In this document: one piece after another, positions 1,624-64,000 of the stretch
Layout of the letters: every line of letters begins with the position of its first letter
Numbering within the stretch: the stretch's first letter is position 1
Made by a program: the position numbers and the translations under genes
From: Candidatus Sungiibacteriota bacterium
GTDB lineage: Bacteria; Patescibacteriota; Minisyncoccia; Sungbacterales; JACQCQ01
DNA length: 64,000 bases
Direction of reading: 5' to 3'
NCBI GenBank assembly: GCA_016201505.1
Contig: JACQCQ010000009.1
Location: 1,991-65,990, forward strand
Notes under the pieces: generated by a model
Told to the model about the DNA's origin: nothing
Database searches by the model: none
Seen by the model: only the letters and a program-made list of their open reading frames with translations

Positions 1624-2137
1624 AAAATGGGTTGAGGTTTTTTCCATTTTCTATTTGCTGTTTGCTATTTGCTTCTCCGCCTCCGCCCATGTTTTAAAGA
1701 GCGACGGCGTAATCGGCGCCGATCTTCACATTGAGCCGGATGACGATCCTTACGTCGGAGCTCCCGCGACGCTGTACCTCGATTTTAAGGACTTGAGCGG
1801 AAAGTTTTTGCTCGATCAATGCGACTGCCGCATGAGTATTTCTCTAGATAACAGCCAGCTGTATGAAGCGAGCCTCGTCTCTTTCACCGCCTCGTACACA
1901 TTTGCCAAACCCGCAAGCTATCTGCTCACGGTGAGCGGAACACCGAAACACATTCGCGCATTCCAGCCGTTTTCACTAGAATATCCAATACGAGTCGCCC
2001 GTATGGTCCCGCCAGCCGCGGCCTCGCAAAAGTCAAAAACTCATAATCATAATTCGATAATTCTGTACGGCATTTCGGCCATCATCACGTTCTTTATTTT
2101 GTACTACGAAAAAAATAAAGCGAAGTTGTTTTCGTAA
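1613..2137 (+). CDS. Hypothetical secreted protein with C-terminal membrane anchor
   Basis: N-terminal signal-like segment, C-terminal hydrophobic helix, and coding-like composition. Confidence 0.4.
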   Translation: MRIRKWVEVFSIFYLLFAICFSASAHVLKSDGVIGADLHIEPDDDPYVGAPATLYLDFKDLSGKFLLDQCDCRMSISLDNSQLYEASLVSFTASYTFAKPASYLLTVSGTPKHIRAFQPFSLEYPIRVARMVPPAAASQKSKTHNHNSIILYGISAIITFFILYYEKNKAKLFS

Positions 2138-2226
2138 CATGCCGGAATCATTATTTACCGCGGCGCTTATCCAGCATTTGCTCCTCCGGCAATTTTTGAC
2201 ATTACCAATGGCGGGAGATAGGCTAT

Positions 2227-2871
2227 TTGAGTATGTCTAAATTTTCCATCGGCATCATGCTCTTAGTTCTGGTTCTTTCCGGCGGGCTTTTTTATATCGC
2301 GAAACATAGACCCGAAGACGCTGCCCATGTCCTAACGCTGGCCGTGACTCCCGGTGATCACGCCACGGGGACGCCGACCGCAAGGGTCACTTTGCTCGAA
2401 TACGGCGATTATCAGTGTCCGGCCTGCGCCGCCTATTTTCCGCTGGTCGAGCAAATCCGCAAAGATTATGCGGGCAAAATCCTCTTTGTCTTCCGCAATT
2501 TTCCGCTTACAGCGATCCATTCAAATGCCGAGATCGCGGCCCTGGCGGCTGAAGCCGCCGGCCTGCAGGGAAAATATTTTGAGATGTATGCAACACTCTA
2601 TCCGCATCAAAACGATTGGTCGGGTTCCCGAAATGCCAAAGATATTTTTATGGGGTATGCCGAAAGTCTCGGCCTCGATAAAACCAAGTTCTCGAACGAT
2701 CTTGATTCAGATAGCTTAAAGAAAAAAATTGAAGATGATGCCAACAGCGGACTGGCCGCGGGCGTCCAGGGCACGCCGACTTTCTTTATCAATGGTAAGT
2801 CGATTCAAAATCCGCAAAGTTATGATGGATTCAAAAAACTCATTGACGACGCCCTCGCCAAGAATCCCTAA
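2227..2871 (+). CDS. DsbA-family thiol:disulfide oxidoreductase (thioredoxin fold)
   Basis: CPAC active site (YGDYQCPACAAYFP), N-terminal TM anchor, and thioredoxin-like length. Confidence 0.8.
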   Translation: MSMSKFSIGIMLLVLVLSGGLFYIAKHRPEDAAHVLTLAVTPGDHATGTPTARVTLLEYGDYQCPACAAYFPLVEQIRKDYAGKILFVFRNFPLTAIHSNAEIAALAAEAAGLQGKYFEMYATLYPHQNDWSGSRNAKDIFMGYAESLGLDKTKFSNDLDSDSLKKKIEDDANSGLAAGVQGTPTFFINGKSIQNPQSYDGFKKLIDDALAKNP

Positions 2872-3298
2872 GTGGCTGGCACCAGCCATTATTATCGTAT
2901 CCGCCATCGGGCTGCTTGATTCCGCCTATCTGGCCATGAAGTATTATTTGGGCGAGCCCGTTACCTGCTCGCTCTTTTGGGGCTGCGAGGCCGTGACCAC
3001 CAGCCAATATGCCGCCGTGGGCCATGTTCCGACGGCACTATTCGGCGTTTTATTTTACCTCGGCACATTTTTACTCGGGATTCTCTATTACGAAACCAAA
3101 AAAGAAATCTATTTGCGCCAATTTTCGTATCTCTCCGCGATTGGATTTTTAGTTTCACTGGGTCTCCTCTGGCTTGAACTGTTTGTCATCCGCGCCATCT
3201 GCGTCTACTGCTCAATTTCAACCCTCGCCTCAACCATTCTTTTCATCTGCGGCGTCTTCAGCCTGCGTAATACATCGAGCGCGCGGAACTCTCCTTGA
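2822..3298 (+). CDS. Vitamin K epoxide reductase (VKOR) family protein
   Basis: VKOR signature CSLFWGCEAV plus C-terminal CVYC within a 4-5 TM protein. Start ATG at 2822 overlaps the dsbA end by ~50 nt (the ORF track gives a longer 2729 start). Confidence 0.7.
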   Translation: MMDSKNSLTTPSPRIPKWLAPAIIIVSAIGLLDSAYLAMKYYLGEPVTCSLFWGCEAVTTSQYAAVGHVPTALFGVLFYLGTFLLGILYYETKKEIYLRQFSYLSAIGFLVSLGLLWLELFVIRAICVYCSISTLASTILFICGVFSLRNTSSARNSP

Positions 3299-3364
3299 AG
3301 TAAAAAGACATTTTGGCATACTGGATGGTAGAGTTTGCCCCCACTCCACGAAGGAGGTGAGGCG

Positions 3365-4108
3365 ATGAGCCTTGTCGGGAGAGTCATCATCGTCGCCAGC
3401 GTTCTGGTTTTCGGATTCTCGTCCTGCGCGCCGTTCAAAGTAACGGGGGTAAAACCCGCCGCCCAGGCACAGGCCGCGGCCAGCGACTCCGCCAAATCGG
3501 CCGCTCAATGCTCGCGTACTGCGCAAGAATCGGTCGGCAAGTTTCTGGCCGGGTTGATGGAGGCCATCTGGAAATCGAGTCTCGTGCTTCTTCGTTCGGT
3601 CTTTCCGCCGGACATGAATCTTCTGCAGGCCTTCAGCGACAAGAACGACGGCGGCGAGGTGGTGAAAGCCATCATGCAATACTCGAAAGAACAAATGGGC
3701 GACCAGGTTGCCCCCGAGTACGATCCGGGGGCCGTCGTCATAGACACCGAAAACCCGCTGGTCAAGCTGGTCACGGTCCGGCGGCATATCGATCACACCA
3801 GTTACAAGACGGGCAAAACCGAGGAGTTGGATGAAGAGCGCCAATTCATGGTCATGTTTGACAGTCCGGACCGAAACTGCATCATCTGGATCCGGGCGAT
3901 TGACCCCGCTTGGAGAAGAATCAGCGAGAGCCAAACCACCGGCTCTCGTTTTATTTTGAATTATTTTTATCCGCCGTCGCAGCAGACCTCAGGCATTAGC
4001 CTAAGGGTGAGTGTGATTATGACAGATAATCTTGAGTCGAGTTTGGGAGTGGATGCTTTGGCGCCTGCTCGCCAGTGCCTGTGTCATAAGGACTCCCTAA
4101 TGTCTTAA
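3365..4108 (+). CDS. Hypothetical lipoprotein (GC-rich islet)
   Basis: Strong SD AAGGAGGTG 7 nt upstream of the ATG at 3365. Signal peptide ending ...GFSSC (lipobox-like). GC-rich codon usage unlike neighbouring genes. Confidence 0.45.
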   Translation: MSLVGRVIIVASVLVFGFSSCAPFKVTGVKPAAQAQAAASDSAKSAAQCSRTAQESVGKFLAGLMEAIWKSSLVLLRSVFPPDMNLLQAFSDKNDGGEVVKAIMQYSKEQMGDQVAPEYDPGAVVIDTENPLVKLVTVRRHIDHTSYKTGKTEELDEERQFMVMFDSPDRNCIIWIRAIDPAWRRISESQTTGSRFILNYFYPPSQQTSGISLRVSVIMTDNLESSLGVDALAPARQCLCHKDSLMS

Positions 4109-5359: not shown

Positions 5360-5890
5360 ATGATCACTACGACGACACTGCAGTCAAACGGGGCTGGAGT
5401 TACCGCCAAGTCAAGAAGCATGGGCACTCGCCAGGACGGCCTTGTCGGTTGGAAGCTGGTGCTGCCGATCGTTCTCGGCCTGCTCGCAATGTTTGCCTTC
5501 TCGACGGGGATCATGCTCGCGGCAGATCACGGCGGACGGACGCTGCGTAACGCCGTCATGACGACCTGGCTGCTCGCGTTCTTCTATCCGATCAGCATGC
5601 TCTTCCTGACGCTCGTTCTCGTGCGGATCGGCTGTCAGATCTCGAGATACCCGCCGAGTTCGAAGCTCACCAGCTGGGGATCGAATGCCCCCGGACTCGC
5701 AGTCGGGGTTCTTCTGCTCGCTGTGTTCATTGGTCTAAAGATTCTCACGGGGATGCCGACGAAGACGGGAGCAGAAGCGCTTCAGTCACTGCTCACCTAC
5801 TTCTGCGCCTTGGCGGTCCTGGTGGCCATCTGCGAGGTTGTCCGCTGGCTGGGGCGAGAGATCACGCATCCAGCCTTGAGCCTCATGTAG
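5360..5890 (+). CDS. Hypothetical polytopic membrane protein (GC-rich islet)
   Basis: SD CCAGGAGGAG upstream; 4-5 predicted TM helices. Confidence 0.5.
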   Translation: MITTTTLQSNGAGVTAKSRSMGTRQDGLVGWKLVLPIVLGLLAMFAFSTGIMLAADHGGRTLRNAVMTTWLLAFFYPISMLFLTLVLVRIGCQISRYPPSSKLTSWGSNAPGLAVGVLLLAVFIGLKILTGMPTKTGAEALQSLLTYFCALAVLVAICEVVRWLGREITHPALSLM

Positions 5891-5922
5891 CAGAGGTACT
5901 GCTACATGATCTCGGCTTCGAG

Positions 5923-6080: not shown

Positions 6081-6656
6081 TTACTCAAGATCCGATAGTC
6101 TCCCGATCAAAAATTCAAGCAGGATGAATACCAGCAGACCCGAAAGTAGCGCGATCTCGGTAAATCTCAAATAGTGCCGGACATGAATGAGCGTCGCCGA
6201 TGAAAAAAAGCCCAGCGAAGCTACAATTAAAAACCACATGAAAACAGCCAGAGAATCTTTGCGCCAGATTTTTTTTGGCTCTATATTTAAGAGTCCGGCT
6301 TTGACCACCATCAAATGGCCGAGGCCGTACATAAATTTTGAAATGAAGAGTGTGCGGGCGGTTCGTTCGGCGAGATGAGTGTTGAAACGATTGGTCAGCC
6401 GTTCAATCCAATGGCGGACAAAAAGCCAAACTTTTGTTTCGCGGAGCCAGACGCCGATTTGATACCAGAATGTCTCGCCGATCAGCAGTCCGACAGCAAC
6501 GACCAGAATTGTTTTTGCCGGATTTAAATACCCGAGACGCGCGAGAAAAGCCGCGGTAAATAAAATGATATCGCCTTCAAAAATCATGCCGAAGAATATA
6601 AATGCATAGGCCAAGGGTCGCGAAATAAGTAAATACGGCAATAAAAAAGAGCGCAT
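6081..6656 (-). CDS. DedA/SNARE-associated (VTT domain) membrane protein
   Basis: DedA-like motifs (FIFFGMIFEGD, LARLGYLNP, FISKFMYGLGHL) and topology. Confidence 0.7.
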   Translation of the reverse strand: MRSFLLPYLLISRPLAYAFIFFGMIFEGDIILFTAAFLARLGYLNPAKTILVVAVGLLIGETFWYQIGVWLRETKVWLFVRHWIERLTNRFNTHLAERTARTLFISKFMYGLGHLMVVKAGLLNIEPKKIWRKDSLAVFMWFLIVASLGFFSSATLIHVRHYLRFTEIALLSGLLVFILLEFLIGRLSDLE

Positions 6657-6660
6657 CCGT

Positions 6661-7401
6661 TTAGGGTTTTATCAATTGGTAGAGCTCATCATCCAGTCGG
6701 AACACTTCCTCCGATCTCATATTGCGCGGTCGCGGCAGATGATTTTGGATTATGCGTTCAACCCGGGCTGGCGGTTTTGTCAGCACAGCAATGCGGTCCG
6801 CCATTTCGACCGATTCGTGGATGTTGTGCGAAACCATCACGATCGTAACTTTTCGCTCGGCCCAGACGTCGAGCAGTTCTTGGCGCAGGGCGTCGCCGGT
6901 GAATGAGTCAAGTTCGGAAAACGGCTCGTCCATGAAGATTATTTTTGGGTCGGTGGCGAGCGCCCGGGCAATGCCGACGCGCTGCTTCATGCCGCCGGAC
7001 AATTCATGCGGGTGATGATTTGCGAATTTTTCCAGTCCAAAGATTTTAAGTTCTTGCCAGACGCGTTCTCTTCGTTTCTCCTCCGAAGTCTCGCGCTCGA
7101 GGAGACCGAGTTCGATATTCTCGCCGACCGTCAGCCAGGGCAGAAGCGCAAACTGCTGAAAGACAAAGCTGATATCTTTTTGGCTAAGCCCTGCGCCTAA
7201 GACCCTCTCCCCGGTGTAAGCTGGCTCGATGCCGGCGAAGATGCGGAGCAAGGTTGATTTGCCTGAACCCGAGGGCCCCATTAGGACAAAGAACTCGCCA
7301 AAATGAATTTCCAGGTTGATGTCTTTTAACGCATGAAAAGGACTGGCGTTTTTTCCGTCCATAAAAGTTTTATTTATATTTTTTGCTTCAAGTGCAAACA
7401 T
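6661..7401 (-). CDS. ABC transporter ATP-binding protein (NitT/TauT/SsuB-like family)
   Basis: Walker A GPSGSGKST, signature LSGGMKQRVGIARAL, Walker B IIFMDEP. Confidence 0.85.
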   Translation of the reverse strand: MFALEAKNINKTFMDGKNASPFHALKDINLEIHFGEFFVLMGPSGSGKSTLLRIFAGIEPAYTGERVLGAGLSQKDISFVFQQFALLPWLTVGENIELGLLERETSEEKRRERVWQELKIFGLEKFANHHPHELSGGMKQRVGIARALATDPKIIFMDEPFSELDSFTGDALRQELLDVWAERKVTIVMVSHNIHESVEMADRIAVLTKPPARVERIIQNHLPRPRNMRSEEVFRLDDELYQLIKP

Positions 7402-12159: not shown

Positions 12160-12225
12160 TGTCTACCGTCTACCGACTACAGTCTACTGCCTAAACCTTT
12201 GCGGTAGTCAATGTCAGTAGCCCGT
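12160..12225. repeat. Leader-repeat family copy (gtctaccgtctaccgactacagtctactg...gcggtagtcaatgtcagtag)
   Basis: Same word composition (CTACAG/GACTAC/GGTAGTC) as the copies at 26432, 44505, 45410 and 46010. Confidence 0.5.
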
Positions 12226-14493: not shown

Positions 14494-14873
14494 AGACTCA
14501 CAACAAATTTTATAGGCTGATATTCAGATTTTCAGATATAAATCTCAAGTTAAATTTTCTAACGGGGTAAACTTGCCATGGTCAAATTTCTTCGATATAT
14601 CTAAAGCGGGCTCGTGGTTAGCGTACCATAGAGAAGAACGCTCGTTCCATTCTTGAAATTTCGGCCTTGAGGAGGTGAATAGGCAGTCATGAATTTTTAC
14701 CTCTGCGAATTCAGTGATCTCGAGCCGGTCATCGCGGCGAGACTCGCCGAAGAAGGTTTCTGTCCCGGAATTCCCCAGTGCGGCATTCGGGCTAAGGATT
14801 ATCGCGCGGGGAAGTGCGATCTCGAAGGCTGTCCCCGGCGAGCCCGGGAGAAGGCCTATCTGCAAACCACTGG

Positions 14874-16088
14874 CTAGGCCAGGCGCAGCGCCGGCTCGGC
14901 GCGGAGATCGCTCCGCGCCGCTTTTTTATTTCGCTGGTAATAGGCCGCCACCGCAATCATTAAGCCGTTATCGGTCGTTTCTTTTGGGTGCGGCAGAAAT
15001 ACTTTCACGGTGGGCAGCGCGCGAGAAAAACTTTCAGCCAGATCTTTGCGCAATTTTTTATTTGCCGCGACTCCCCCGCCGAGAATGAATGTTTTCACGC
15101 CGTATTTTCTGGCCGCAGCAATAGTTTTTTTAACGAGTACCTCAACCACCGCATTCTGAAACTCATGCGCGATATCAGCGAATAACGAATCTCCTTCGAA
15201 TATACGAATTCGTTTATTCGTTTTAAATTCGGTATTCGTTGTTGTGAGTTCACGAAGTTTATATAACACCGCTGTCTTTAACCCTGAAAACGAAAAATCA
15301 AAGTTGGGTGAATCGATCATCGGCCTCGGCAGCCTGATTCTCGGTTCTTTATTCTTGATTCTAAATTTCTCGGCGAGCCGAGAAATTTGTGGTCCTCCCG
15401 GATACGTAAGGCCCAAGAGTTTTGCGACCTTATCAAAAGCTTCGCCGGCGGCATCGTCCCGCGTCTCGCCGATAATTTGATACGCGCCGTGTTTTTTCAT
15501 GAGCACGAGTTCGGTATGTCCCCCCGAGACAATCAAAGCCAGCGCCGGGAAATCAATTTTTTTCTGATGCAGGAGATTGACATATATATGGCCCGCCAGA
15601 TGATTTACGGAAACGAGCGGCACCTGCCATACGCGCGCCAGGCCTTTAGCAAAATTAACCCCGGTCCAGAGCGCCGGCGCCAGCCCCGGCCCGTAGGTGA
15701 CGGCAATGACATCAATGGCGGGTTTTTCAATTTTAGGGATTTCTTTTTTAAATTGACGGAACAACTCCGGCTCGTGCGAAAAACAATCAGCCAATATCGA
15801 ATTGTTTGCGAATATACGAATTCGCTTATTCGTTTTAGATTCGTTATTCGCTGATGAGCGATAGAGCCTCGCTTCTTTGAGCGCTGTTTTTAATACCGGC
15901 ACTAAGTTTTTCTCATGCTCTCTTTTCGCCAGGTTTGGCACGACGCCGCCGAACTTGGCGTGGATGGCAATCTGCGATGAGACAACATTGGCAAGCGGCT
16001 TAAATTTCGGCGCGTTGATACGTCCATCTGCTTCAAGCACAGCAATCGCCGTTTCATCACATGATGTTTCAATGGCTAGAATTCTCAT
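14874..16088 (-). CDS. tsaD: tRNA N6-adenosine threonylcarbamoyltransferase TsaD (Kae1/Gcp family) with two in-frame insertions
   Basis: ILAIETSCDETAIAV N-terminus, HLAGHIY, DFSFSGLKTAV and ILGGGVAAN. 404 aa versus ~340 typical. Confidence 0.85.
   Translation of the reverse strand: MRILAIETSCDETAIAVLEADGRINAPKFKPLANVVSSQIAIHAKFGGVVPNLAKREHEKNLVPVLKTALKEARLYRSSANNESKTNKRIRIFANNSILADCFSHEPELFRQFKKEIPKIEKPAIDVIAVTYGPGLAPALWTGVNFAKGLARVWQVPLVSVNHLAGHIYVNLLHQKKIDFPALALIVSGGHTELVLMKKHGAYQIIGETRDDAAGEAFDKVAKLLGLTYPGGPQISRLAEKFRIKNKEPRIRLPRPMIDSPNFDFSFSGLKTAVLYKLRELTTTNTEFKTNKRIRIFEGDSLFADIAHEFQNAVVEVLVKKTIAAARKYGVKTFILGGGVAANKKLRKDLAESFSRALPTVKVFLPHPKETTDNGLMIAVAAYYQRNKKAARSDLRAEPALRLA
15197..15241. 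repeat. Intragenic palindromic element copy 1 inside tsaD (cgaatatacgaattcgtttattcg...)
   Basis: Near-palindrome centred on GAATTC. An 86% identical copy lies at 15808-15850. Translated in frame as KTNKRIRIF. Confidence 0.6.
15808..15850. repeat. Intragenic palindromic element copy 2 inside tsaD (cgaatatacgaattcgcttattcg...)
   Basis: See copy 1; same in-frame peptide KTNKRIRIF. Confidence 0.6.
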
Positions 16089-16196
16089 GACTGAAGCATT
16101 ATATCCCGAAATAGTAAGTTTACAATTAGGCGGATTTGAGTTATTTTGGGCTTCAGTTAATTAGAAATTAAGAATTAGAGATTAGGAATTCTTCCT

Positions 16197-19406: not shown

Positions 19407-21584
19407 TTGAGGTTTAATTTTCTCGCGGGGTATACTTTTTATATGTTGACAGCGGAAACGCCAATCGAAAAATTGCCGAAGGTAATTCCGGCACTCGCTA
19501 AACGGCTGCATCACCTGGGCATTAAAACCGTTCGCGACCTCTTATTTCATTTTCCCGCCCGCTATGATGATTTTACAAATGTAAAATCCATCGGCGATTT
19601 GACAATCGGCGAAATTGCGACCATTTCAGGCCGCATTAAAAAAATTTCATCAACCCGCGCCTGGCGCCGCCGTATGTCCATTACGGAGGCGATTGTCGAA
19701 GATGATTTAGATTCGATACGCGTCATTTGGTTTAATCAGCCCTACCTCGTCAAAACCTTGCCGGTTGGTTCGCGAGTGAGTCTGGCGGGAAAATTAACCA
19801 CATCCAAGCGCGGCGAATATTTTGCCAACCCAGCATATGAAAAAATCGGAATGTCAGACGGCCTGCGGCATACCGGCGGATGGGTGCCCATTTATCCCGA
19901 GACGACTGGGCTTACCTCGCGCTGGATTCGGTTTCTGATGCGTGAAGTCGCCCCCGTTATAAAAAAAATTCCCGATCCCTTGCCGTCGGCCTTGCTTAAA
20001 AAAAGCACCTTACTTCCGCTTGAGCGCGCGCTTAGTAAAATCCATTTTCCTGAATCAAAAGACGAGTACGAAGAAGCTCGCAAGCGCTTCGCCTTCGAGG
20101 ATATTTTATTGATTCAGCTGCGCGTGTTGATGTCCAAAAAACAACTGGAAGAAAAAAAAGCGCCGCCGATTCCTTTAGGCCTCGAAGAAATTAAAAAGTT
20201 TATCGCCTCTCTCCCGTTCTCCTTAACCGATGGCCAACGCCGGGCCGCCTGGGACATCATGCGGGACACGGCAAAATCGGTGCCCATGAACCGCCTGCTG
20301 GAAGGCGATGTCGGATCGGGAAAAACCGTTGTGGCCGCGCTCACCTCGTTTAATGCCATCAGGTCCGGCTACCAGGTGGCCTATCTCGCGCCAACCGAAA
20401 TCCTGGCCATCCAGCATTTTAATACCTTAAGGCACTGGCTCTCTCCGTTTGGCGTTTACGTGGGTCTCCTGACAGCGGCGCATAAAAAATTTATTTCAGA
20501 TTACGGCGAGAGAGACCGAGTAAGCATCAGGAGCATGACCGAGGCGGGCGAAATTCCTATGCTGATCGGAACCCAGGCGGTGATCCAAGACGGCGTCAAA
20601 TTTAAAAACTTGGGTCTCGTGATTGTTGACGAACAGCACCGCTTCGGGGTCGCACAACGCGCCAAGCTGCTTCGGCAAAAGCAAACAGGCAATAGCCAAG
20701 AGGACTATTCCCCATCCCTCATCCCCCATTTTCTCTCCATGACGGCAACGCCCATCCCGCGAACTCTCGCGCTTACCATTTACGGCGATCTCGATGTTTC
20801 AATTTTAAATCAAGTCCCTCAAGGACGAAAGCCGATTGTGACCAAAATTGTGCCGGAAGAGAAAAGAAGCGCCTGCTATCAATTCATCCGAGACGAGGTG
20901 CATCGCGGCCGCCAAGTTTTTGTTATTTGTCCCAGAATTGAATTAAACGAGGAAATGGGAAATGGGAAATGGGAAATGGGAAATGTTTTGCGAGAAGAGG
21001 TGAAAGCCGTCAAAACCGAGTATGAAAAATTATCAAAACAAATTTTCCCTGACTTAAAAGTCGCCATGCTCCACGGCAAAATGAAATCAAAAGAGAAAGA
21101 AAATGTTATGCGCGATTTTAAAGAGGGAAAATCGGATGTCTTGATTTCAACTTCAGTGATTGAAGTTGGTGTCGATGTGCCGAATGCCACGATTATGTTA
21201 ATTGACGGAGCGGAAAAATTCGGGCTGGCGCAAATTCATCAGTTCCGCGGCCGGGTGGGCAGAGCCTCGCATCAGTCGTATTGTTTTTTAATGACCGGCT
21301 CAAGGGCCGCAGCAGAATCACAACGCTTAAAAGCCTTGGTTACTGCCAAAAATGGATTTGAACTGGCCGAAAAAGATCTCGCCATCCGCGGCCCCGGAGA
21401 TTTTTTGGGCACGCGCCAATCCGGCATCCCGCCCTTTGCTTATAAAAGTTTTAATGATCTGGAACTGGTTCAATCATCTCGCGATGCGGCGCGGGAGATT
21501 ATCGAGAAAGATCCGAAACTGGAGAGGCACGTCGCGCTGCAGAAAAATCTGGTGAAATTTGAAGAGACCGTGCACTTTGAATAA
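19407..21584 (+). CDS. recG: ATP-dependent DNA helicase RecG
   Basis: TDGQRRA, GDVGSGKT (Walker A), DEQHRFGV (DEQH), helicase C motifs (QFRGRVGR). Possible later start at 19443. Confidence 0.85.
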   Translation: MRFNFLAGYTFYMLTAETPIEKLPKVIPALAKRLHHLGIKTVRDLLFHFPARYDDFTNVKSIGDLTIGEIATISGRIKKISSTRAWRRRMSITEAIVEDDLDSIRVIWFNQPYLVKTLPVGSRVSLAGKLTTSKRGEYFANPAYEKIGMSDGLRHTGGWVPIYPETTGLTSRWIRFLMREVAPVIKKIPDPLPSALLKKSTLLPLERALSKIHFPESKDEYEEARKRFAFEDILLIQLRVLMSKKQLEEKKAPPIPLGLEEIKKFIASLPFSLTDGQRRAAWDIMRDTAKSVPMNRLLEGDVGSGKTVVAALTSFNAIRSGYQVAYLAPTEILAIQHFNTLRHWLSPFGVYVGLLTAAHKKFISDYGERDRVSIRSMTEAGEIPMLIGTQAVIQDGVKFKNLGLVIVDEQHRFGVAQRAKLLRQKQTGNSQEDYSPSLIPHFLSMTATPIPRTLALTIYGDLDVSILNQVPQGRKPIVTKIVPEEKRSACYQFIRDEVHRGRQVFVICPRIELNEEMGNGKWEMGNVLREEVKAVKTEYEKLSKQIFPDLKVAMLHGKMKSKEKENVMRDFKEGKSDVLISTSVIEVGVDVPNATIMLIDGAEKFGLAQIHQFRGRVGRASHQSYCFLMTGSRAAAESQRLKALVTAKNGFELAEKDLAIRGPGDFLGTRQSGIPPFAYKSFNDLELVQSSRDAAREIIEKDPKLERHVALQKNLVKFEETVHFE
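20951..20978 (+). repeat. (GGAAATG)x4 heptanucleotide tandem repeat inside recG
   Basis: ggaaatgggaaatgggaaatgggaaatg encodes ..EEMGNGKWEMGN.. in a loop of the helicase C-domain. Confidence 0.8.
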
Positions 21585-23187: not shown

Positions 23188-23188
23188 G

Positions 23189-23260
23189 TGCGCGCGCTAG
23201 GATTCGAACCTAGGACCCACTGTGTATAAGACAGTTGCTCTACCGCTGAGCTACGCGCGC
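23189..23260 (-). tRNA. tRNA with anticodon TAT (tRNA-Ile UAU), no encoded CCA
   Basis: RC reads gcgcgcgtagctcagcggtagagca-actgt-cTTATac-acagt-gggtc-ctaggttcgaatcctag-cgcgcgc-a, a regular cloverleaf. Confidence 0.6.
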
Positions 23261-25176: not shown

Positions 25177-25234
25177 TTTTATTTTTAATCCACCGCTCCC
25201 CTTTCCCCATTTCCCATTCTCTATTCCCTATTTC

Positions 25235-26425
25235 CTATTCTGCGGTTGCCTCAAGACGAGACGCCGTCGTTTCATCTACGGGGGCAGCTGCCTCCGCTGC
25301 TTTTGGCGCGAGAAAGCCCTCAAGCGCCAGCGAAAGCCGATGTTCCGGGATATCAATCGAGACGATTTTGAAGTCGTAGGTTTTGCCAAGCTCCAAGACT
25401 TCGCGCATTTTGGTGCGTGTCCCGAATTCGGAGATGTGGGCCAGTCCCTGGATCGTCTCGTCAATCTGGACAAATGCGCCGTAGGGATTAAATTTGGTCA
25501 CTTTGCCTGAAATAATTTCACCCTTTTTATACTTCTCACCGGCGGCAATCCAAGGGTCAGGTGTTAGGGCTTTCAATGATAACGAAATTTTATCGCCCTC
25601 GATATCAATAATTTTAGCCTGCTTTTTCTCGCCGACTTTCAGCACCGCTTTCGGGTCTTCAATCAGCTGCCAGTCAATTTCCGAGATATGAATCAGACCC
25701 TCAAGCCCGTCGTCAAATTTCATGAAGGCGCCGAAGTTAACCACACCGGTAATTTCACCCTCGACCGTGTCGCCTTTGGCATATTTTGCAAGTTTCTCTT
25801 TCATTTCAGCCGAATCACTATCACGTTCGGAGAAAATCAGTTTATTTTCATACGGATTTACATCCAAAATTTTCACTTTCAACTCTTGGTTCATAAATTT
25901 CTGCAGTTCGGCAAGGATGCGCTCTTTGTCGCCGTTTTCGACTCTCGGGTAGTGCTTTAAGGCAAGCTGTGAGACGGGCAAAAATCCGCGCACGCCGTGA
26001 AGCTCTAAAATCAGTCCGCCGCGGTTAGCTTCTTTCACCGGAAGTGATAAAACTTCGCCCGCTTGCATCTTGTCTTTTAAGTCACGCCAGGACTTTTCGC
26101 GCCCGGCTTCTTTTAAGGAAAGTTCAACGTAGCCCTCGTCATTATCCAGTTCGACGACTTTCGCCGTAACCAGGCTGTCGGGCTCGATATTCTTGATGAT
26201 GTCTTGGGCTTCATAATATTCGCGGCCGTAGATAATGCCCGTGCCGCGAACGCCAAGATCGATAAAGAGTTTGGCACCTTTTTTCTCGATGGCCGTGCCC
26301 TCGACAATCTCGCCGACTTTCGGCACGTTTAAAAAGTCACCGCGTGACTTGAGCATATTCTCCATCGGATGACGGATGGCGCTCGCCACCGCCGTCTTCC
26401 CATCTTCGGCTGTTTCGTCGTTCAT
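25235..26425 (-). CDS. rpsA: 30S ribosomal protein S1 (short four-S1-domain form)
   Basis: Repeated S1-domain pattern (GxVxGxVxxIxxFGAFV...) four times. Confidence 0.8.
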   Translation of the reverse strand: MNDETAEDGKTAVASAIRHPMENMLKSRGDFLNVPKVGEIVEGTAIEKKGAKLFIDLGVRGTGIIYGREYYEAQDIIKNIEPDSLVTAKVVELDNDEGYVELSLKEAGREKSWRDLKDKMQAGEVLSLPVKEANRGGLILELHGVRGFLPVSQLALKHYPRVENGDKERILAELQKFMNQELKVKILDVNPYENKLIFSERDSDSAEMKEKLAKYAKGDTVEGEITGVVNFGAFMKFDDGLEGLIHISEIDWQLIEDPKAVLKVGEKKQAKIIDIEGDKISLSLKALTPDPWIAAGEKYKKGEIISGKVTKFNPYGAFVQIDETIQGLAHISEFGTRTKMREVLELGKTYDFKIVSIDIPEHRLSLALEGFLAPKAAEAAAPVDETTASRLEATAE

Positions 26426-26431
26426 CTGGTT

Positions 26432-26505
26432 GACTGCTGGCTACGATCTACAGACTACGGCGTGAGTTGCAGTAGTCGGTAGTCAGTTTGCTGTAGACCG
26501 TACTA
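26432..26505. repeat. Leader-repeat family copy immediately upstream of the rpsA start
   Basis: ctacgatctacagactacggcgtgagttgcagtagtcggtagtcagtttgctgtagaccg. Confidence 0.5.
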
Positions 26506-38551: not shown

Positions 38552-38823
38552 TTTCCGATCCTCCTGCCGCGAATGCGGCGTCCACGTTCTCTACGTGGGT
38601 TAAGGTTAGATTCGTTTGCTTGCGCTCGTATCTATCGGAAAAGGCAGTTTTTGCCTTTTGTTAGTATATTCAGCTGTCAAACAGCCTTAGTTAAGCCAAA
38701 TTTCAGGCTCAACCAACTGGCCGCTATTTTAAACTATAATTATAGTAAAAGTCAACCGCTTGTCATGGTTCAATAGCTTGGCGATAATTTACCAAAATCT
38801 AACTCCCCGTACCTACCGATATC

Positions 38824-38851
38824 TCCCTATAGTACAATATAGGTATGAAGT
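38824..38851. repeat. Inverted-repeat motif copy (RC: attgtactatagggagatatcggtagg) left of the PaaX-like gene
   Basis: Pairs with 39415-39441. A third, near-identical copy lies at 48066-48098. Confidence 0.5.
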
Positions 38852-39393
38852 CTAAGATGGGGCCCATCCAAAGTTCATTGCTTGAGGCGTTGTCCGAACT
38901 CGGCACAATCACCTACGCGGTTTTGACATCGTCGAGGAACACAAAGCTCCTGCGGCGTAAACTCGGCGCGTATGGAGTACCCAATCCGGCATTTCGCCGT
39001 TCTCTGGAGAAACTTAAGGAACGCGGCTACGTGGAATTTAAAATTATCCAGGGGGAAGAATATTTGGTACTGTCGAAATCAGGCAAAGAAAAAATGAAGA
39101 GTAAGGAAGTGCTTGAATTAAAATTGCCTCGGCAGCCAAAGTGGGACAAGAAGTGGCGCGTCATACTGTTTGATATCCCCGAGCGTTTTAAAACGGCGAG
39201 GCGTGCACTCTCATTTCAATTGCGATCGATGGGGGCCGTTCCGTTTCAGAAAAGTGTCTTTGTCTTCCCCTACCATTGCAAAAAAGAAGTCGAGTTTGTG
39301 TCAAATTTTTTCGGCGTGGGGCCATACATTCGTTATATGGAAGCCAAGATTATGGGCGATGACGAATCTTTGCGAAAGCACTTTAACCTTTGA
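38845..39393 (+). CDS. PaaX-like regulator: winged-HTH N-domain plus Cas2/VapD-fold-like C-domain
   Basis: C-domain WRVILFDIPERFKTARRALSFQLRSMGAVPFQKSVFVFP follows the Cas2/PaaX pattern (hhhhYDI..RR..L...L...G.R.Q.SVF). Family assignment is from memory. Confidence 0.45.
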   Translation: MKSKMGPIQSSLLEALSELGTITYAVLTSSRNTKLLRRKLGAYGVPNPAFRRSLEKLKERGYVEFKIIQGEEYLVLSKSGKEKMKSKEVLELKLPRQPKWDKKWRVILFDIPERFKTARRALSFQLRSMGAVPFQKSVFVFPYHCKKEVEFVSNFFGVGPYIRYMEAKIMGDDESLRKHFNL

Positions 39394-39414
39394 CACAGCC
39401 GACACGACCGATAG

Positions 39415-39441
39415 CAAACTATAGGGAGATATAGGTCGGTT
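39415..39441. repeat. Inverted-repeat motif copy (aaactatagggagatataggtcgg) right of the PaaX-like gene
   Basis: Shares the 14-nt core actatagggagata in opposite orientation with 38826-38839. Confidence 0.5.
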
Positions 39442-40378: not shown

Positions 40379-40450
40379 GCCGGAGTAGCTCATCGGTAGA
40401 GCAGCACCATGGTAGGGTGTTGGCAGCGGGTTCAATTCCCGCCTCCGGCT
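40379..40450 (+). tRNA. tRNA-Thr (anticodon GGT)
   Basis: Acceptor gccggag/ctccggc, anticodon loop atGGTag, T-loop ttcaatt. Confidence 0.85.
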
Positions 40451-40495
40451 CCGTAGATTAGAAATTAAGCGATAGGAATTAGAAATTTAGTTGAT

Positions 40496-44091: not shown

Positions 44092-44499
44092 CTACATACC
44101 TGACGACATAGGCATTGAAGCCATGGCGGGCTTTTTCATGGCCGCCCAGAGCGCCCAGGCGCCGACAACCAAGTGCAGAAAGGTGTCTGCCGGATTCTCA
44201 AGGTTGGCACCTAAGAAGTTGCTTGAGTAGACGAGGCTATAAAGGCCTACGAGTACGCCGATGACGCCAAGCAATAGCACTAATGGCTTTTGCAGTGATG
44301 CGGGAAAGGCGAATGCCGCAATCAGGCCCACGACTCCCAAGACCAAGTGCGCCCAGTTTTCTCCGTTATCAAACCACCAGGTAGCGCCGAAGATGCTCCC
44401 ATCAGGCGAGGGGCCGATAACGCCCATAAAACCAAGGATGGCGACCAGGACGAGCACAATACCGCCGATAGTTAGAAATCCTTTTGGAGTTAAGATCAT
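44092..44499 (-). CDS. Hypothetical small membrane protein
   Basis: Four TM helices, Gly-rich. Confidence 0.45.
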   Translation of the reverse strand: MILTPKGFLTIGGIVLVLVAILGFMGVIGPSPDGSIFGATWWFDNGENWAHLVLGVVGLIAAFAFPASLQKPLVLLLGVIGVLVGLYSLVYSSNFLGANLENPADTFLHLVVGAWALWAAMKKPAMASMPMSSGM

Positions 44500-44504
44500 T
44501 TAGA

Positions 44505-44570
44505 ATGACTACCGACTACCGCCCACAGTCTACGGCACTAGGCGTAGTCTGTAGTCAGTCGACTGTAGAC
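44505..44570. repeat. Leader-repeat family copy upstream of the 44499 start
   Basis: gactaccgactaccgcccacagtctacggcactaggcgtagtctgtagtcagtcgactgtagac. Confidence 0.5.
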
Positions 44571-44796
44571 ATTATAAAAAAACGAGCTCGACCTTTTAAC
44601 CCCGTTAGAAAAATACCTTGTGCTTCAGCTTAAAACTTAAATGCGAAGCTCTAACGGGGTGAACTGAACTTTAGTATAGCATTGTCGTTTATAGGCTCAA
44701 GAGTTTTAGCGGTTTATTTTTCGACGCGATTATTGACATATGCATATTTATATGATATAAGACATGAAGATTTGATCATTCTAGTTTCTTGGGGGT

Positions 44797-45129: not shown

Positions 45130-45409
45130 TTTCGTCCCCATGCGGGGCGGCGCGTAACGCGCCGCCCCGCTCTTCATTTTCGCCCGATTGTTGACAGGCG
45201 GTTATCGCCTTCCTATACTTCTCATGCAATCGCTTCAGAGACAGCAGGCAGGCTAGGTAATAGAAAATAGGCAATGGGGAATAGCGGTAACTGCGTACCC
45301 ATTGCCTGTTCCCCAGTCCCTATTCCCTAGCCGTAAGTCCCGCCGAGAGGCATATTCTCTTCCCTTCTTAGGGAATCTCTGTGGCCCTTGGGGTCATTTT
45401 ATTGTAAAA

Positions 45410-45477
45410 GTCTACAGTCTACTGGCTACAGACTACGGCGCATTGAAGCTGTAGTCGGTAGACGGTAGTCGGTAGCC
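45410..45477 (+). repeat. Leader-repeat family copy immediately upstream of rplJ (~90% identical to 46010-46077)
   Basis: tctacagtctactggctacagactacggcgcattgaagctgtagtcggtagacggtagtcggtagcc. Confidence 0.6.
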
Positions 45478-45483
45478 AAAGCA

Positions 45484-46005
45484 GTGTTAACCAAAGTCGA
45501 AAAAGGAAAAATTGTGGAGGAGTTAAAAGAAAAGATTGCCAAACAACGTGTGGCGATTTTCTCCAACTTCCATGGCTTGTCGGTAACGAAACAGCAAGAA
45601 CTGCGGCGCAGCCTTAAAAAAGAAAATGCCGAATACAAGGTGGCGAAAAAAACGCTGATCAGCCGGGCCTTTGAATCCGCTAAAATTCCCTTTGTGCATA
45701 AAGATTTTAAGGGAGAACTGTCCGTCATTTTTGGATACGGCGATGAGGCGAGTCCGGCGAAGTCGCTTTTTAAATTTGGCAGAAAAAATCCTGATGCCAT
45801 CTCCATCGTAGGCGGCATTTTGGGTTCACGCGCGCTTTCCAAAGATGAAGTCGTTTCGCTCGCAAAATTGCCGTCGCGAGAGGAACTCTTGGGCCAAGTG
45901 GCCCGTGCAATTTCCGCTCCGATCCGGGGGTTCCTGAACGTACTAAACGGTAATCAGCGAAAGCTCGTTCTTGCACTTTCGGAAATTGCCAGAAAGAAAT
46001 CATAA
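45484..46005 (+). CDS. rplJ: 50S ribosomal protein L10
   Basis: L10 N-terminal pattern (KVEKGKIVEELKEKIAKQRVAIFSNFHGLSV); GTG start. Confidence 0.85.
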   Translation: MLTKVEKGKIVEELKEKIAKQRVAIFSNFHGLSVTKQQELRRSLKKENAEYKVAKKTLISRAFESAKIPFVHKDFKGELSVIFGYGDEASPAKSLFKFGRKNPDAISIVGGILGSRALSKDEVVSLAKLPSREELLGQVARAISAPIRGFLNVLNGNQRKLVLALSEIARKKS

Positions 46006-46009
46006 AATA

Positions 46010-46077
46010 GTTTACAGTCTACTGGCTACAGACTACGGCATATTGAAGCGGTAGTCGGCGGACGGTAGTCAGTAGTC
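46010..46077 (+). repeat. Leader-repeat family copy immediately upstream of rplL
   Basis: tttacagtctactggctacagactacggcatattgaagcggtagtcggcggacggtagtcagtagtc. Confidence 0.6.
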
Positions 46078-46085
46078 ATAAATCA

Positions 46086-46988: not shown

Positions 46989-47645
46989 TTGGCATATAGT
47001 GAAGATGCTATGGAACTTGTCTTAGAAAAACTTTTCGAGTCGAAGGCAAAAGTCAGAATTTTGCGCTTATTTTTAAGGAATCCGGCCAGTCATTTTTCGC
47101 TCGATCAAGTCTCGCGTCTGGTGGGATTGAAAGAAGAAGAAACGGCAAAAGAAATTTCAAAATTTTTGCAGCTTGGCATTTTAAAATGGCGCACGACGCA
47201 AGTCGTCGTTTCGGAACTTTCCGGCAAAGGCAAAATGAAAAAATTGCGCATGCGCCAAAAAACGGTCAGAGTTTTTATCGCCGATGAGAACTTTTATTTT
47301 TTCAAGGAACTGCAGGCCTTAATTCTGCGCCAGGTGCCGGAGTCGCGTCATCGGCTGGTTTCAAAAATCAAAAAACTGGGCCGCGTGAAGCTGGCCATCG
47401 CGACCGGCGCTTTCGTCAATAATGATTCGGCGCGGGTTGATCTTTTAATCGTGGGTGACTCTATCAATCGCCGCAGGCTCGAGAACATGCTGCATACCTG
47501 GGAGGCCAACGCCGGCAAAGAACTGACTTATGCCCTGATGACGACTGAAGAGTTTAAATATCGCGTGGATATGTTTGACCGGTTTACCCGCGACATTCTT
47601 GAAACTTCGCATGATAAGTTGATCAATGCGCTGAATGTGAGTTAG
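46989..47645 (+). CDS. Hypothetical protein (possible wHTH N-terminus)
   Basis: Coding-like composition; no confident motif. Confidence 0.45.
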   Translation: MAYSEDAMELVLEKLFESKAKVRILRLFLRNPASHFSLDQVSRLVGLKEEETAKEISKFLQLGILKWRTTQVVVSELSGKGKMKKLRMRQKTVRVFIADENFYFFKELQALILRQVPESRHRLVSKIKKLGRVKLAIATGAFVNNDSARVDLLIVGDSINRRRLENMLHTWEANAGKELTYALMTTEEFKYRVDMFDRFTRDILETSHDKLINALNVS

Positions 47646-47761
47646 GAAATGGGAAATTGGAAATAGTGAATAGACGCTTGAACCAAAAAGTCGCCTCGAC
47701 TTCCGCCAGCCGGCGGATCGCGGACGATTTTTTGCTACTATCACTTCGTGACAGATCATCT

Positions 47762-47983: not shown

Positions 47984-48065
47984 TCGCTGGAAACACTCTG
48001 GCAAAACGCCGAAGAGACGAAATCAAAAAGAATGAATTGAAATTAGTCTCGTCTTAGACCTCATA

Positions 48066-48098
48066 CCGATATTGTACTATAGGGTAATATAGGTATAT
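48066..48098. repeat. Third copy of the attgtactataggg... motif
   Basis: cataccgatattgtactatagggtaatataggtat matches the RC of 38824-38851 at 22 of 23 positions. Confidence 0.5.
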
Positions 48099-56502: not shown

Positions 56503-56797
56503 ATAGCATTGCAGGTCTCGACCTCTGCTGAGGTTTGGCGAATCGTTCGGAAAACTTAAGAAGGTCTCTTTCTAAAGAGGCAAAAGGCTGTCTTTAAACT
56601 GTTGCGAAATTTTTTTTCGACGAGACTCTTTCATTGAACGGTTGGCTTGTTTCAGCAGCGGGTTCGAGTGCCCGCTGTTTTAAGTTCCAGATAGTTTAAT
56701 ATGAACGTGGTGCGAGTATACTGCAAACATATACAATCGTCAACGATTTTAGGTTTTAGCTATTCGTTTATGAGCCTAGAATGATAGAATTAAGCTA

Positions 56798-57030
56798 TGA
56801 ATCCCGTTAGAGAATGAATCAGAGACTACATTTCGAACATGAAACTCACGACACATAAAGACATGAGACCAGCAACAGAGTTAGTAGTTAATTCTCTAAC
56901 GGGATGAATCCCGTTAGAGAATGAATCAGAGACTACATTTCGAACATGAAACTCACGACACATAAAGACATGAGACCAGCAACAGAGTTATTAGTTAATT
57001 CTCTAACGGGATGAATCCCGTTAGAAGCCG
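56798..57030 (+). repeat. Tandem direct repeat, 107-bp unit x ~2.2, each unit bounded by the cccgttagaga...tctctaacggg inverted repeat
   Basis: Units start at 56798, 56905 and 57012 and differ at one position. Lies upstream of gpmI. Confidence 0.85.
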
Positions 57031-57239
57031 TGATCGTCGAAAGATCAAAAACAATGTGACGCCGGATAAATTAGATAATTTAATGCAGACTCCGCGTAGG
57101 GTCGCGATCCCGCTACCACAAAGCCTTCATGGATTTGACTACGGGACAAGCCTAACTATGACAGACTTACTATTCACTACGGCTCACCCCGTAGTCACCG
57201 AGCACGCGAGGTGTACTACCGGGGTCTCTCTCTAACGGG

Positions 57240-59971: not shown

Positions 59972-60009
59972 AGTCAGTTCATTCTCATATTCTCAAGAAT
60001 ATGAGAATT

Positions 60010-63464: not shown

Positions 63465-64000
63465 GAGCAAATTTAAAACTTTTATGAAAACAAAAACACC
63501 TTGGAGAGCGATGCGAGAGGAGATACTTTCAAATGAAAGAACATTCGCACCGCTCTCTAAGGTGTCACTGGATTCTTTTTCGCGACATTCTCACATTCTC
63601 AAGAATGTTGGAATGTCATAAATTGTTTTTATATTCTCTAATTCCTGCCTGCTGGCAGGCAGGCGCGCGAATAAGCGAATGGACAAATCACGCGTGACTT
63701 TTATTCTAATGTTCTTAAGAACTTGAGAATAAAGAATCTTTTTGCTACTTCTCAAAGTCCGCGAATCAAGTCGTGAGCTTAGTTGAAGCACGAGGTGCGT
63801 CTTGCGAACTTCGCAAGACGCACCTCGTTTTCGCGTGCCTCGTCCGAGGCTTCCCGCCGCGAAGCGGTTCGGTTCTCTTTGGCGTAGATTGTGGCAGGGC
63901 TCTACGCTCACCAAAACCGAAAAAGGATTTGCCAGCCCCAGGAAGATATTTTTAGTCTTGGTGATCTCGCCGTCTTCCCCGACGAGGCCAAGTGTTTTCA

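Follow-up and report, generated by a model that had tools for sequence, protein, structure and literature searches.

A palindromic repeat of Patescibacteria found in frame within tsaD: probable selfish DNA with a possible GxxExxY nuclease partner

Introduction

Rickettsia palindromic elements (RPEs) are palindromic repeats of about 100–150 bp that occur in frame within genes of Rickettsia (Ogata et al. 2000, summarised in PMC10969869). Here, we describe a different palindrome, the CGAAT element, which is present twice in the tsaD gene of a Candidatus Sungiibacteriota bacterium. The gene lies in a stretch of 64,000 nucleotides, hereafter the window (assembly GCA_016201505.1, contig JACQCQ010000009.1, positions 1,991 to 65,990). 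Like RPEs, the element is a short multi-copy palindrome found both between genes and within unrelated housekeeping genes, where it is in frame and would be translated into additional peptides at positions that tolerate them, and it occurs in reduced genomes of host-dependent bacteria. The likeness is functional and does not imply homology, and judging from host phyla and Rfam the two appear to have no sequence relationship. Nothing places the element among RPE-1 to RPE-10: its matches lie in Patescibacteria and a few other phyla, and include no family of Rfam nor any other known one. In contrast to RPEs, it has 70–72 nt with eight CGAAT pentamers, its family extends across many classes of another phylum, and it has a form that bears an open reading frame (ORF) for a GxxExxY nuclease, whereas no partner gene of RPEs is named in PMC10969869.

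In its organisation the family resembles the REPIN/RAYT systems, in which many ORF-less hairpin repeats accompany a few small genes that have inverted copies of these repeats on either side (PMC3116915, PMC3337134, PMC8266576). We found a gene flanked by its own dispersed repeats in two genomes, LacPavin_0818_WC45 and JACPMF01, and the ORF-bearing copy sits at a conserved locus, the prfB–ftsE interval, in two Staskawiczbacteria. However, the gene of the CGAAT cassette encodes a PD-(D/E)XK nuclease of about 130 aa instead of an HUH/Y1 (IS200/IS605-type) transposase, and matches TIGR04256 and PF13366 only. The element also lacks a GTAG/CGTC head and enters coding regions in frame, and movement of the repeats by the nuclease is only putative.

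Two further classes invite comparison. [quoted passage not shown] The CGAAT element is likewise an ORF-less sequence of 70–72 nt with inverted termini (ATCARCG/CGYTGAT) and a longer relative with the same arms. But it is one whole palindrome, no target-site duplication was detected, and the ORF of the longer relative encodes a GxxExxY PD-(D/E)XK protein, not a recognised transposase. Intervening sequences of 23S rRNA, for example that of Coxiella, are inserts of about 400–460 nt with long complementary arms around one small ORF (PMC4990558), a shape shared by the ORF-bearing cassette. Unlike them, CGAAT copies lie in protein-coding genes and intergenic DNA instead of rRNA, and the solo arms appear, from their sequence, to be translated rather than excised.

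The closest relatives in kind are RPEs in behaviour, REPIN/RAYT in organisation and ORF-bearing rRNA intervening sequences in cassette shape. GxxExxY ORFs are, we presume, also annotated in rRNA intervening sequences. The CGAAT family is a member of none of the three because of the lack of homology, the other enzyme class and the other host clade. TIGR-Tas arrays were also considered and rejected: the element is a single 70-nt palindrome, and there is no tandem array. The literature that we searched holds no description of palindromic repeats of the candidate phyla radiation (CPR, or Patescibacteria) or of GxxExxY cassettes, which is no proof of novelty.

Two copies of the element in an intact tsaD

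The host gene (14874..16088, minus strand) encodes a protein of 404 aa identified as TsaD by TIGR03723, by the TsaD chains of the PDB and by its orthologs. The TIGR03723 equivalog scores 370.7 bits (cutoff 296.1), with the match falling in two stretches, and the PDB chains reach E = 1e-75. H163, H167 and D373, which are conserved in TsaD, are all kept, and the gene is intact. The protein is over-long against the typical ~340 aa, as stated in a first-pass annotation of this DNA: solved TsaDs have 327–343 aa, and the alignment to them leaves residues ~76–123 unmatched and shows a second gap, of 16–17 aa, near query residues 283–300.

Each of these segments contains one copy of the element, recorded without strand. 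Copy B, at site 1 (15786-15856), encodes TsaD residues 78–101, SSANNESKTNKRIRIFANNSILAD, and matches the family profile hidden Markov model (HMM) at E = 3.6e-18. Copy A, at site 2 (15174-15244), encodes residues 282–305, TTTNTEFKTNKRIRIFEGDSLFAD, and matches at E = 6.4e-18. Both are imperfect palindromes centred on GAATTC, with arms of 36–39 nt that are 74–78% complementary. The arm layout CGAATTCG-N3-ATTCG-N6-ATTCG-N2-ATTCG fits all four window arms, when 0.03 would be expected by chance. The unit of 70–72 nt comprises eight CGAAT/ATTCG pentamers, 15 of 16 being intact in the two copies, while the spacers differ, and the termini of the family, ATCAGC... and ...GCTGAT, are present in both. A repeat finder aligns them at 83% identity over 71 nt.

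The first-pass annotation had already noticed the repeat, its near-palindromic structure around GAATTC and the frame shared by both copies (..KTNKRIRIF..). We recovered all three: its 42-nt degenerate pattern has exactly two matches in the window (15197-15238 and 15809-15850) and none in 100 shuffles, and the common frame can be read off the ORF translation. Its repeat length of ~45 bp was an underestimate, and the half-copy placed at 56766 is a bare 11-mer (56761-56771) that we attribute to chance, as it has no flanking pentamer units, leaves the family HMM silent and does not recur letter for letter within either tsaD copy. The family HMM reveals no further copy in the window (next match at E = 1.7). 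Among long palindromes, only the two CGAAT copies lie within verified genes of the window, the others being terminator-like and intergenic. An Rfam scan of the window returned tRNAs only, and the element matches no Rfam family, intron families included.

The most probable explanation is that the two segments are RPE-like palindromic selfish DNA inserted in frame, as put forward in the first-pass annotation, and that they are non-autonomous, belong to a family common among Patescibacteria and are translated. It is supported by the absence of the element from orthologs, by the existence of a multi-copy family and by in-frame copies in other housekeeping genes. The element is absent from both sites in the 22 closest TsaD orthologs (55–62% identity), as expected of the lineage-specific insertions suspected at the outset. 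We propose that 72-nt solo copies landed at two surface-loop positions of tsaD, that they are read through as extra, poorly ordered loop peptides (translation being deduced from sequence only), and that solos are kept where 24 extra loop residues are tolerated. Such copies would persist because the 72-nt form amounts to 24 codons with a stop-free frame.

A multi-copy family, mostly of Patescibacteria

We searched one genome per species (GTDB representatives) with a half-palindrome pattern of 18 specified bases. This revealed at least 118 loci, against some 17 expected by chance, and several genomes had multiple loci. A profile HMM made from the scan matches confirmed at least 102 loci and at least 129 copies. 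The element is a multi-copy repeat, verified in other genomes. Among the matches listed, 16 scan loci fail the family HMM, in line with the chance expectation, and CPR lineages account for some 84 (about 82%) of the 102 that were verified, according to record titles. These are Nealson-, Staskawicz-, Lipton-, Portnoy-, Brenner-, Harrison-, Jorgensen-, Uhr-, Falkow- and Doudnabacteria, Sungiibacteriota and 'Saccharibacteria'; the few loci in other hosts are from Chloroflexota, Omnitrophota and Bacteroidota. Viral contigs, when scanned, yielded no member of the family, and the one hairpin in them was unrelated. When a 23-aa profile of the element peptide, padded with X, was compared with a protein database, the 13 candidates included one insignificant match.

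The modal length is 70 nt (33 of the 54 copies having both termini), and many copies are extended to 72 nt by a complementary C...G. The 70-nt consensus is ATCAACGAATAACGAATCTATTACGAATTTACGAATTCGTAAATTCGTAATAGATTCGTTATTCGTTGAT, or in unit form ATCAACGAATAACGAAT-N6-CGAAT-N3-CGAATTCG-N3-ATTCG-N6-ATTCGTTATTCGTTGAT. The majority lie between genes, where the flank is often A-rich on the left and T-rich on the right, or the copy is beside a start codon. Mobility of the element is inferred from sequence.

In-frame copies within other genes

Ten of the 107 near-full copies (~9%) are in frame within genes. They occupy eight genes with Pfam domains on both sides, including tsaD of the window with its two copies. 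A second tsaD (locus L022) has a copy at the same codon-level site as copy A of the window, LRDLA[STNNELSANKRIRKFVKNSLFAD]VAASFEQ. Two class-V aminotransferase genes (Aminotran_5) are also affected: that of L054 has one copy, and that of L081, which is cysteine-desulfurase-like, has two (174-243 and 714-783). The remaining copies are in the genes for UvrC (L089), UvrD (L115), Mfd (L116) and a protein with a tRNA-ligase anticodon-binding domain (L045). The range of housekeeping genes concerned agrees with the idea of selfish insertion into protein-coding genes. The L054 homolog (ORF 1968-3383) of the L081 aminotransferase carries a different insert, the 21-aa SSAFGVRNEKDNRTIRTSNLE, at the same position after GALYVR, and its CGAAT element is elsewhere.

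The coding potential of the element is uneven. Among the 66 readings obtained from the two strands of 33 copies of 70 nt, 49 are free of stops in one frame and 27 in a second, and the third frame is always interrupted. Every genic copy uses a stop-free frame and keeps the downstream frame; the copies of L081 use the second open frame (HQRI.N..R.NEFVNS..IRYSLM). This use of an open frame with preservation of the downstream frame explains why both tsaD copies of the window share one frame, and argues that the inserts are translated, not removed.

The two tsaD genes with an occupied site 2 are informative on the timing of insertion. The TsaD proteins of L022 and of the window are only 45% identical, and the flanking tsaD DNA is 54–55% identical, whereas the L022 copy and copy A have 76% identity. 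Shared ancestry is therefore less likely than either an independent arrival in comparatively recent times or a constraint acting on the element.

Association with GxxExxY nuclease genes

Some copies of the element are not empty. At L098 in Staskawiczbacteria (5420-5913), the middle of the element is interrupted by about 400 nt encoding a 135-aa GxxExxY protein, which matches TIGR04256 (108.5 bits) and PF13366 (PDDEXK_3, 110.3 bits) and no other family. The two element halves are 79% complementary over 38 nt, and a 15-nt direct repeat is found at the two ORF/element junctions. This insert was the only result of a search for long-range pairs of element ends, the classical sign of an insertion sequence. 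The protein has the PD-(D/E)XK fold (restriction-endonuclease-like), with the catalytic D...E.K motif present. PDDEXK_3 is entered as 'function unknown' (PMC3424549).

Among the at least 118 loci, only one other has a GxxExxY ORF: L071 in Anaerolineales (6258-7000). There, the ORF lies inside an array of CACGAAT-unit hairpins, two of them upstream, with one lone arm and one full hairpin downstream. Half elements are also the apparent form of several other Chloroflexota matches.

We then scanned metagenomes for GxxExxY relatives and obtained 80 loci, 65 of which had enough flank for a test of bracketing arms. In 36 of these 65 loci, the gene is bracketed by inverted arms that exceed the 95th percentile of a null built on mismatched flanks and that start ~0–25 nt from its start and stop codons. 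In L125, L126, L135-137, L140 and L149, the upstream flank corresponds to positions 1–36 of the element HMM and the downstream flank to positions 34/35–70. At L208 (225-685), the ATG and TAA of the ORF even fall within the arms. The 70-nt palindrome corresponds to the two arms, fused, of a GxxExxY cassette of ~460 nt, with the ORF at the palindrome centre. That it is the form of such a cassette without the ORF had not been anticipated in the first-pass annotation.

The arm units follow the protein subfamily. Arms of the (A)CGAAT type accompany nearly all ORFs at least 51% identical to that of L098, the exceptions being two with variant or degenerate units, while ORFs at most 40% identical to it have other arm heptamers, e.g. 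CACAGAT, CACGGAT and CAGAA. On a contig labelled Nanoarchaeota (L211, 640-680), a GxxExxY gene has no left arm and a degenerate right arm (ATTAG for ATTCG); either the cassette is in decay or the contig was binned wrongly.

Loaded cassettes and solos coexist in the same genomes. Sungiibacteriota JACPMF01, from the clade of the window, has a loaded cassette upstream of rpoB (L205, ATCAGCGAATAACGAATCCGGTACGAATATACGAATTC-ORF-ATTCGTAAATTCGTGATAGATTCGTAATTCGTTGAT) and the solos L096 and L116, one of them in frame in mfd. In Staskawiczbacteria LacPavin_0818_WC45, a single loaded copy is accompanied by at least six solos. The prfB–ftsE cassettes of the two Staskawiczbacteria (L098 and L208) have ORFs that are 72% identical, and the shared locus suggests vertical inheritance of the loaded copy.

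These patterns lend themselves to a REPIN/RAYT-like mechanism, in which the GxxExxY nuclease would recognise the CGAAT-unit arms and spread ORF-less solos in trans, leaving few, vertically inherited loaded copies alongside many solos. That the nuclease recognises the arms and supplies in trans the activity that spreads the solos is, in our judgement, an evenly balanced proposition, which draws on the arrangement of the cassettes and the analogy with RAYTs. A cassette of ~460 nt with its own ORF and stops would presumably inactivate any essential gene that received it, and the copies now within genes therefore probably came in as solos of 72 nt. More tentatively, GxxExxY (PDDEXK_3) genes and periodic arms might together make up a class of elements, mobile or domesticated, that is widespread. 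Each subfamily would recognise its own heptamer arms (CGAAT in CPR; CACAGAT, CACGGAT and others elsewhere) and propagate solos, which in Patescibacteria would be repeatedly written in frame into essential genes (tsaD, uvrC, uvrD, mfd, iscS-like, tRNA ligase) and be a regular source of lineage-specific CPR protein insertions.

Alternative explanations

Several observations weigh against selfish, nuclease-driven spread. Flank logos show no target-site duplication, and no empty-site/filled-site pair was found; the flanking bases -1/+1 are complementary and not directly repeated, a pattern with which a palindromic AT duplication is compatible. The 64 kb of the window contain only two copies, both inside one gene, and no GxxExxY ORF was found there. 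Site 2 is filled at the identical codon position in a TsaD as distant as that of L022, which is odd for random transposition, and the net gain at this site is ~12 aa instead of 24. Finally, the link between nuclease and element is correlational, and the ORF could home into pre-existing palindromes.

This last possibility is the main rival on mechanism, although we consider it rather unlikely. The CGAAT palindromes would then be host elements (protein-binding or terminator-like sites, or sequences spread by other machinery), and GxxExxY genes would home into their GAATTC centre without moving the solos. Such homing would account for the constant position of the ORF at the palindrome centre, and for the direct repeat at the L098 junctions, as expected for insertion into an existing element. 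Solos also far outnumber loaded copies, with at least 129 HMM matches against two ORFs in the pattern-selected loci, many intergenic copies have the A-rich left and T-rich right flanks of bidirectional terminators, and shared phylogeny could be the reason why arm units agree with protein subfamilies. However, homing does not sit well with start and stop codons made of arm sequence, nor with the same architecture recurring across phyla with different heptamers for each GxxExxY subfamily. It would still need an unexplained mechanism to place 72-nt solos inside essential genes.

The second tsaD copy could instead have arisen from the first, 612 bp away, by intragenic duplication or gene conversion after a single insertion. 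We regard this as improbable. Both copies are in one gene and none elsewhere in the 64 kb, they are each other's best match (86% identity), they share the spacer TTTTAA/TTTTAG, uncommon in other members, and the 612-bp spacing keeps the frame. But their best matches in unrelated genomes are nearly as close (85–86%, for a family median of 80%). This small difference leaves room for an intragenic copy event. The aminotransferase gene of L081 likewise has two copies, site 2 is independently occupied in the L022 tsaD, and no tsaD flank was co-duplicated beyond the element termini.

A third possibility is that the elements are not translated: hairpins might be excised from the tsaD transcript like intervening sequences, or expression might be interrupted (pseudogene or RNA-level repair). 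The two copies do form stable hairpins on the mRNA strand (-22.1 and -25.4 kcal/mol, z -4.9 and -4.6), and CPR rRNAs are known for insertions. ORFs bracketed by hairpins also recall the 23S rRNA intervening sequences cut by RNase III (PMC4990558). Excision would nevertheless impose no constraint on frame, and all 10 genic copies are stop-free with the downstream frame kept. We know of no bacterial mechanism for re-ligating mRNA after RNase III cleavage. With no match to Rfam intron families and a tsaD that is otherwise intact, this explanation is very improbable. A selected RNA helix was also rejected as the reading of the palindrome. Over 34 copies, pairing reaches 81.8% against 84.9% in shuffles, and the covariation score is 0.045 against 0.085, with 500 of 500 shuffles scoring at least as high. 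The inverted CGAAT units are thus conserved while the base pairs are not, which points to recognition at the DNA and protein levels.

The ortholog alignments refine the first insertion. Patescibacteria TsaDs generally have 375–450 aa, nearly all with an insertion after ALKEA, where the first-pass annotation had placed a ~43-aa extra segment. This insert is composite. Only the first ~24 of its ~45 aa are encoded by the element, in a region of ~24 aa that is hypervariable among Patescibacteria orthologs. The second half (15720..15785, minus strand; residues ~102–123, CFSHEPELFRQFKKEIPKIEKP) is ancient, clade-wide and not repeat DNA: in alignments of 23 and 44 Patescibacteria orthologs, the motif ..SHEPELF..F...IP.....P is conserved in nearly all of them, with E106, L109 and P123 nearly invariant. 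At site 2, the 12 extra residues are unique to the window TsaD among the aligned orthologs. An AlphaFold model based on 44 sequences (mean pLDDT 90.8) draws the same boundary, with a confident helix at 107–119 in the conserved half (pLDDT 92–93). Its only low-confidence blocks are the element peptides, at residues 81–100 (57 and 70; copy B, 57–70) and 281–300 (67 and 55; copy A, 55–67). Judging from these values and from the gaps against solved TsaDs, the peptides are predicted to be poorly ordered surface-loop insertions compatible with the fold.

The weakest alternative, an ancient lineage-specific TsaD domain whose DNA only seems repetitive and is not mobile, holds for residues ~102–123, given the clade-wide insertion and its confident helix, and is contradicted for the element segments, for which it is the least credible of all, since both 24-aa stretches are missing in all 22 closest orthologs, the same 70-nt DNA lies at more than 100 unrelated, mostly intergenic places, its conservation exceeds that of the coding DNA around it (76% against 54–55%), and the two peptides are the sole low-confidence parts of the model.

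The selfish, translated element that we favour is not the only palindrome to have entered tsaD. In ortholog DNA, site 1 (aa ~75–103) holds other long palindromes with periodic arms, none of the CGAAT type. In frame at this site are a GAAATT-type palindrome in L121 (535-592), GTATCAG-type palindromes in L122 (524-607) and L123 (472-547), and a GGAAGTCCGACTTCC pair in L022 (tsaD nt 193-278). A TTTCAAT-type palindrome is in frame at a third site in L119 (824-883). Eight tsaD genes have 10 palindromes with a score of at least 12, when codon shuffles predict 0.15. Site 1 of tsaD thus appears, from these sequences, to be a recurrent landing place for palindromes.

Implications

Proteins and rRNAs of CPR bacteria are known for unexplained lineage-specific insertions. 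Translated palindromic repeats would be a concrete source for some of those in proteins. Selfish DNA within protein-coding genes, so far an oddity of Rickettsia, would extend to a second reduced, host-dependent group, with a candidate partner enzyme supplied where none is named for RPEs in PMC10969869. For the large, uncharacterised GxxExxY/PDDEXK_3 family, the cassettes offer a first genomic context and a testable role, that of a minimal nuclease between its own arms. If the role proposed for the nuclease is true, this is a REPIN/RAYT-like arrangement with a different enzyme class. It is important to highlight that such repeats can lead gene callers astray, as well as the alignment and phylogenetic analysis of CPR marker genes.

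Other repeats in the window

The window contains other short repeats. Inside the ORF of a recG-like helicase (19407..21584, plus strand), about five in-frame GGGAAAT heptamers (…CPRIELNEEMGNGKWEMGNVLREEV…) are found at 20950-20990, and GGGAAAT/ATTTCCC runs recur in intergenic DNA at 25203-25239, 45252-45282 and 47634-47678. These runs possibly represent a second family of repeats that has entered a coding sequence. Intergenic, REP-like hairpins (resembling repetitive extragenic palindromes) with CTACNGN/..GTAG heptamer arms are present at 12163-12199, 26434-26496, 44499-44582, 45406-45478 and 46006-46078. Two 73-nt copies of this hairpin, 88% identical, bracket rplJ (45484..46005), upstream of rplL.

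Three more short families have periodic or palindromic arms: TTAGAAA at 16153-16190 and 40450-40487 (beside tRNA-Glu and tRNA-Thr), ATTCTCA at 59980-60008, 63586-63614 and 63702-63730, and TACCGATAT…TATAGG at 38814-38857, 39406-39440 and 48052-48096. At 56797-57030, a 107-nt unit occurs twice with 99% identity; the palindrome TCTAACGGGATGAATCCCGTTAGA marks its bounds, and TCTAACGGGATGAA appears once more at 57232. A related motif, TCTAACGGGGT, is found at 14539, 19402 and 44631. The window also encodes a tRNA-Ile with anticodon TAT (UAU), identified by ARAGORN at 23188-23260 on the minus strand; such a tRNA is an uncommon bacterial way to read AUA.

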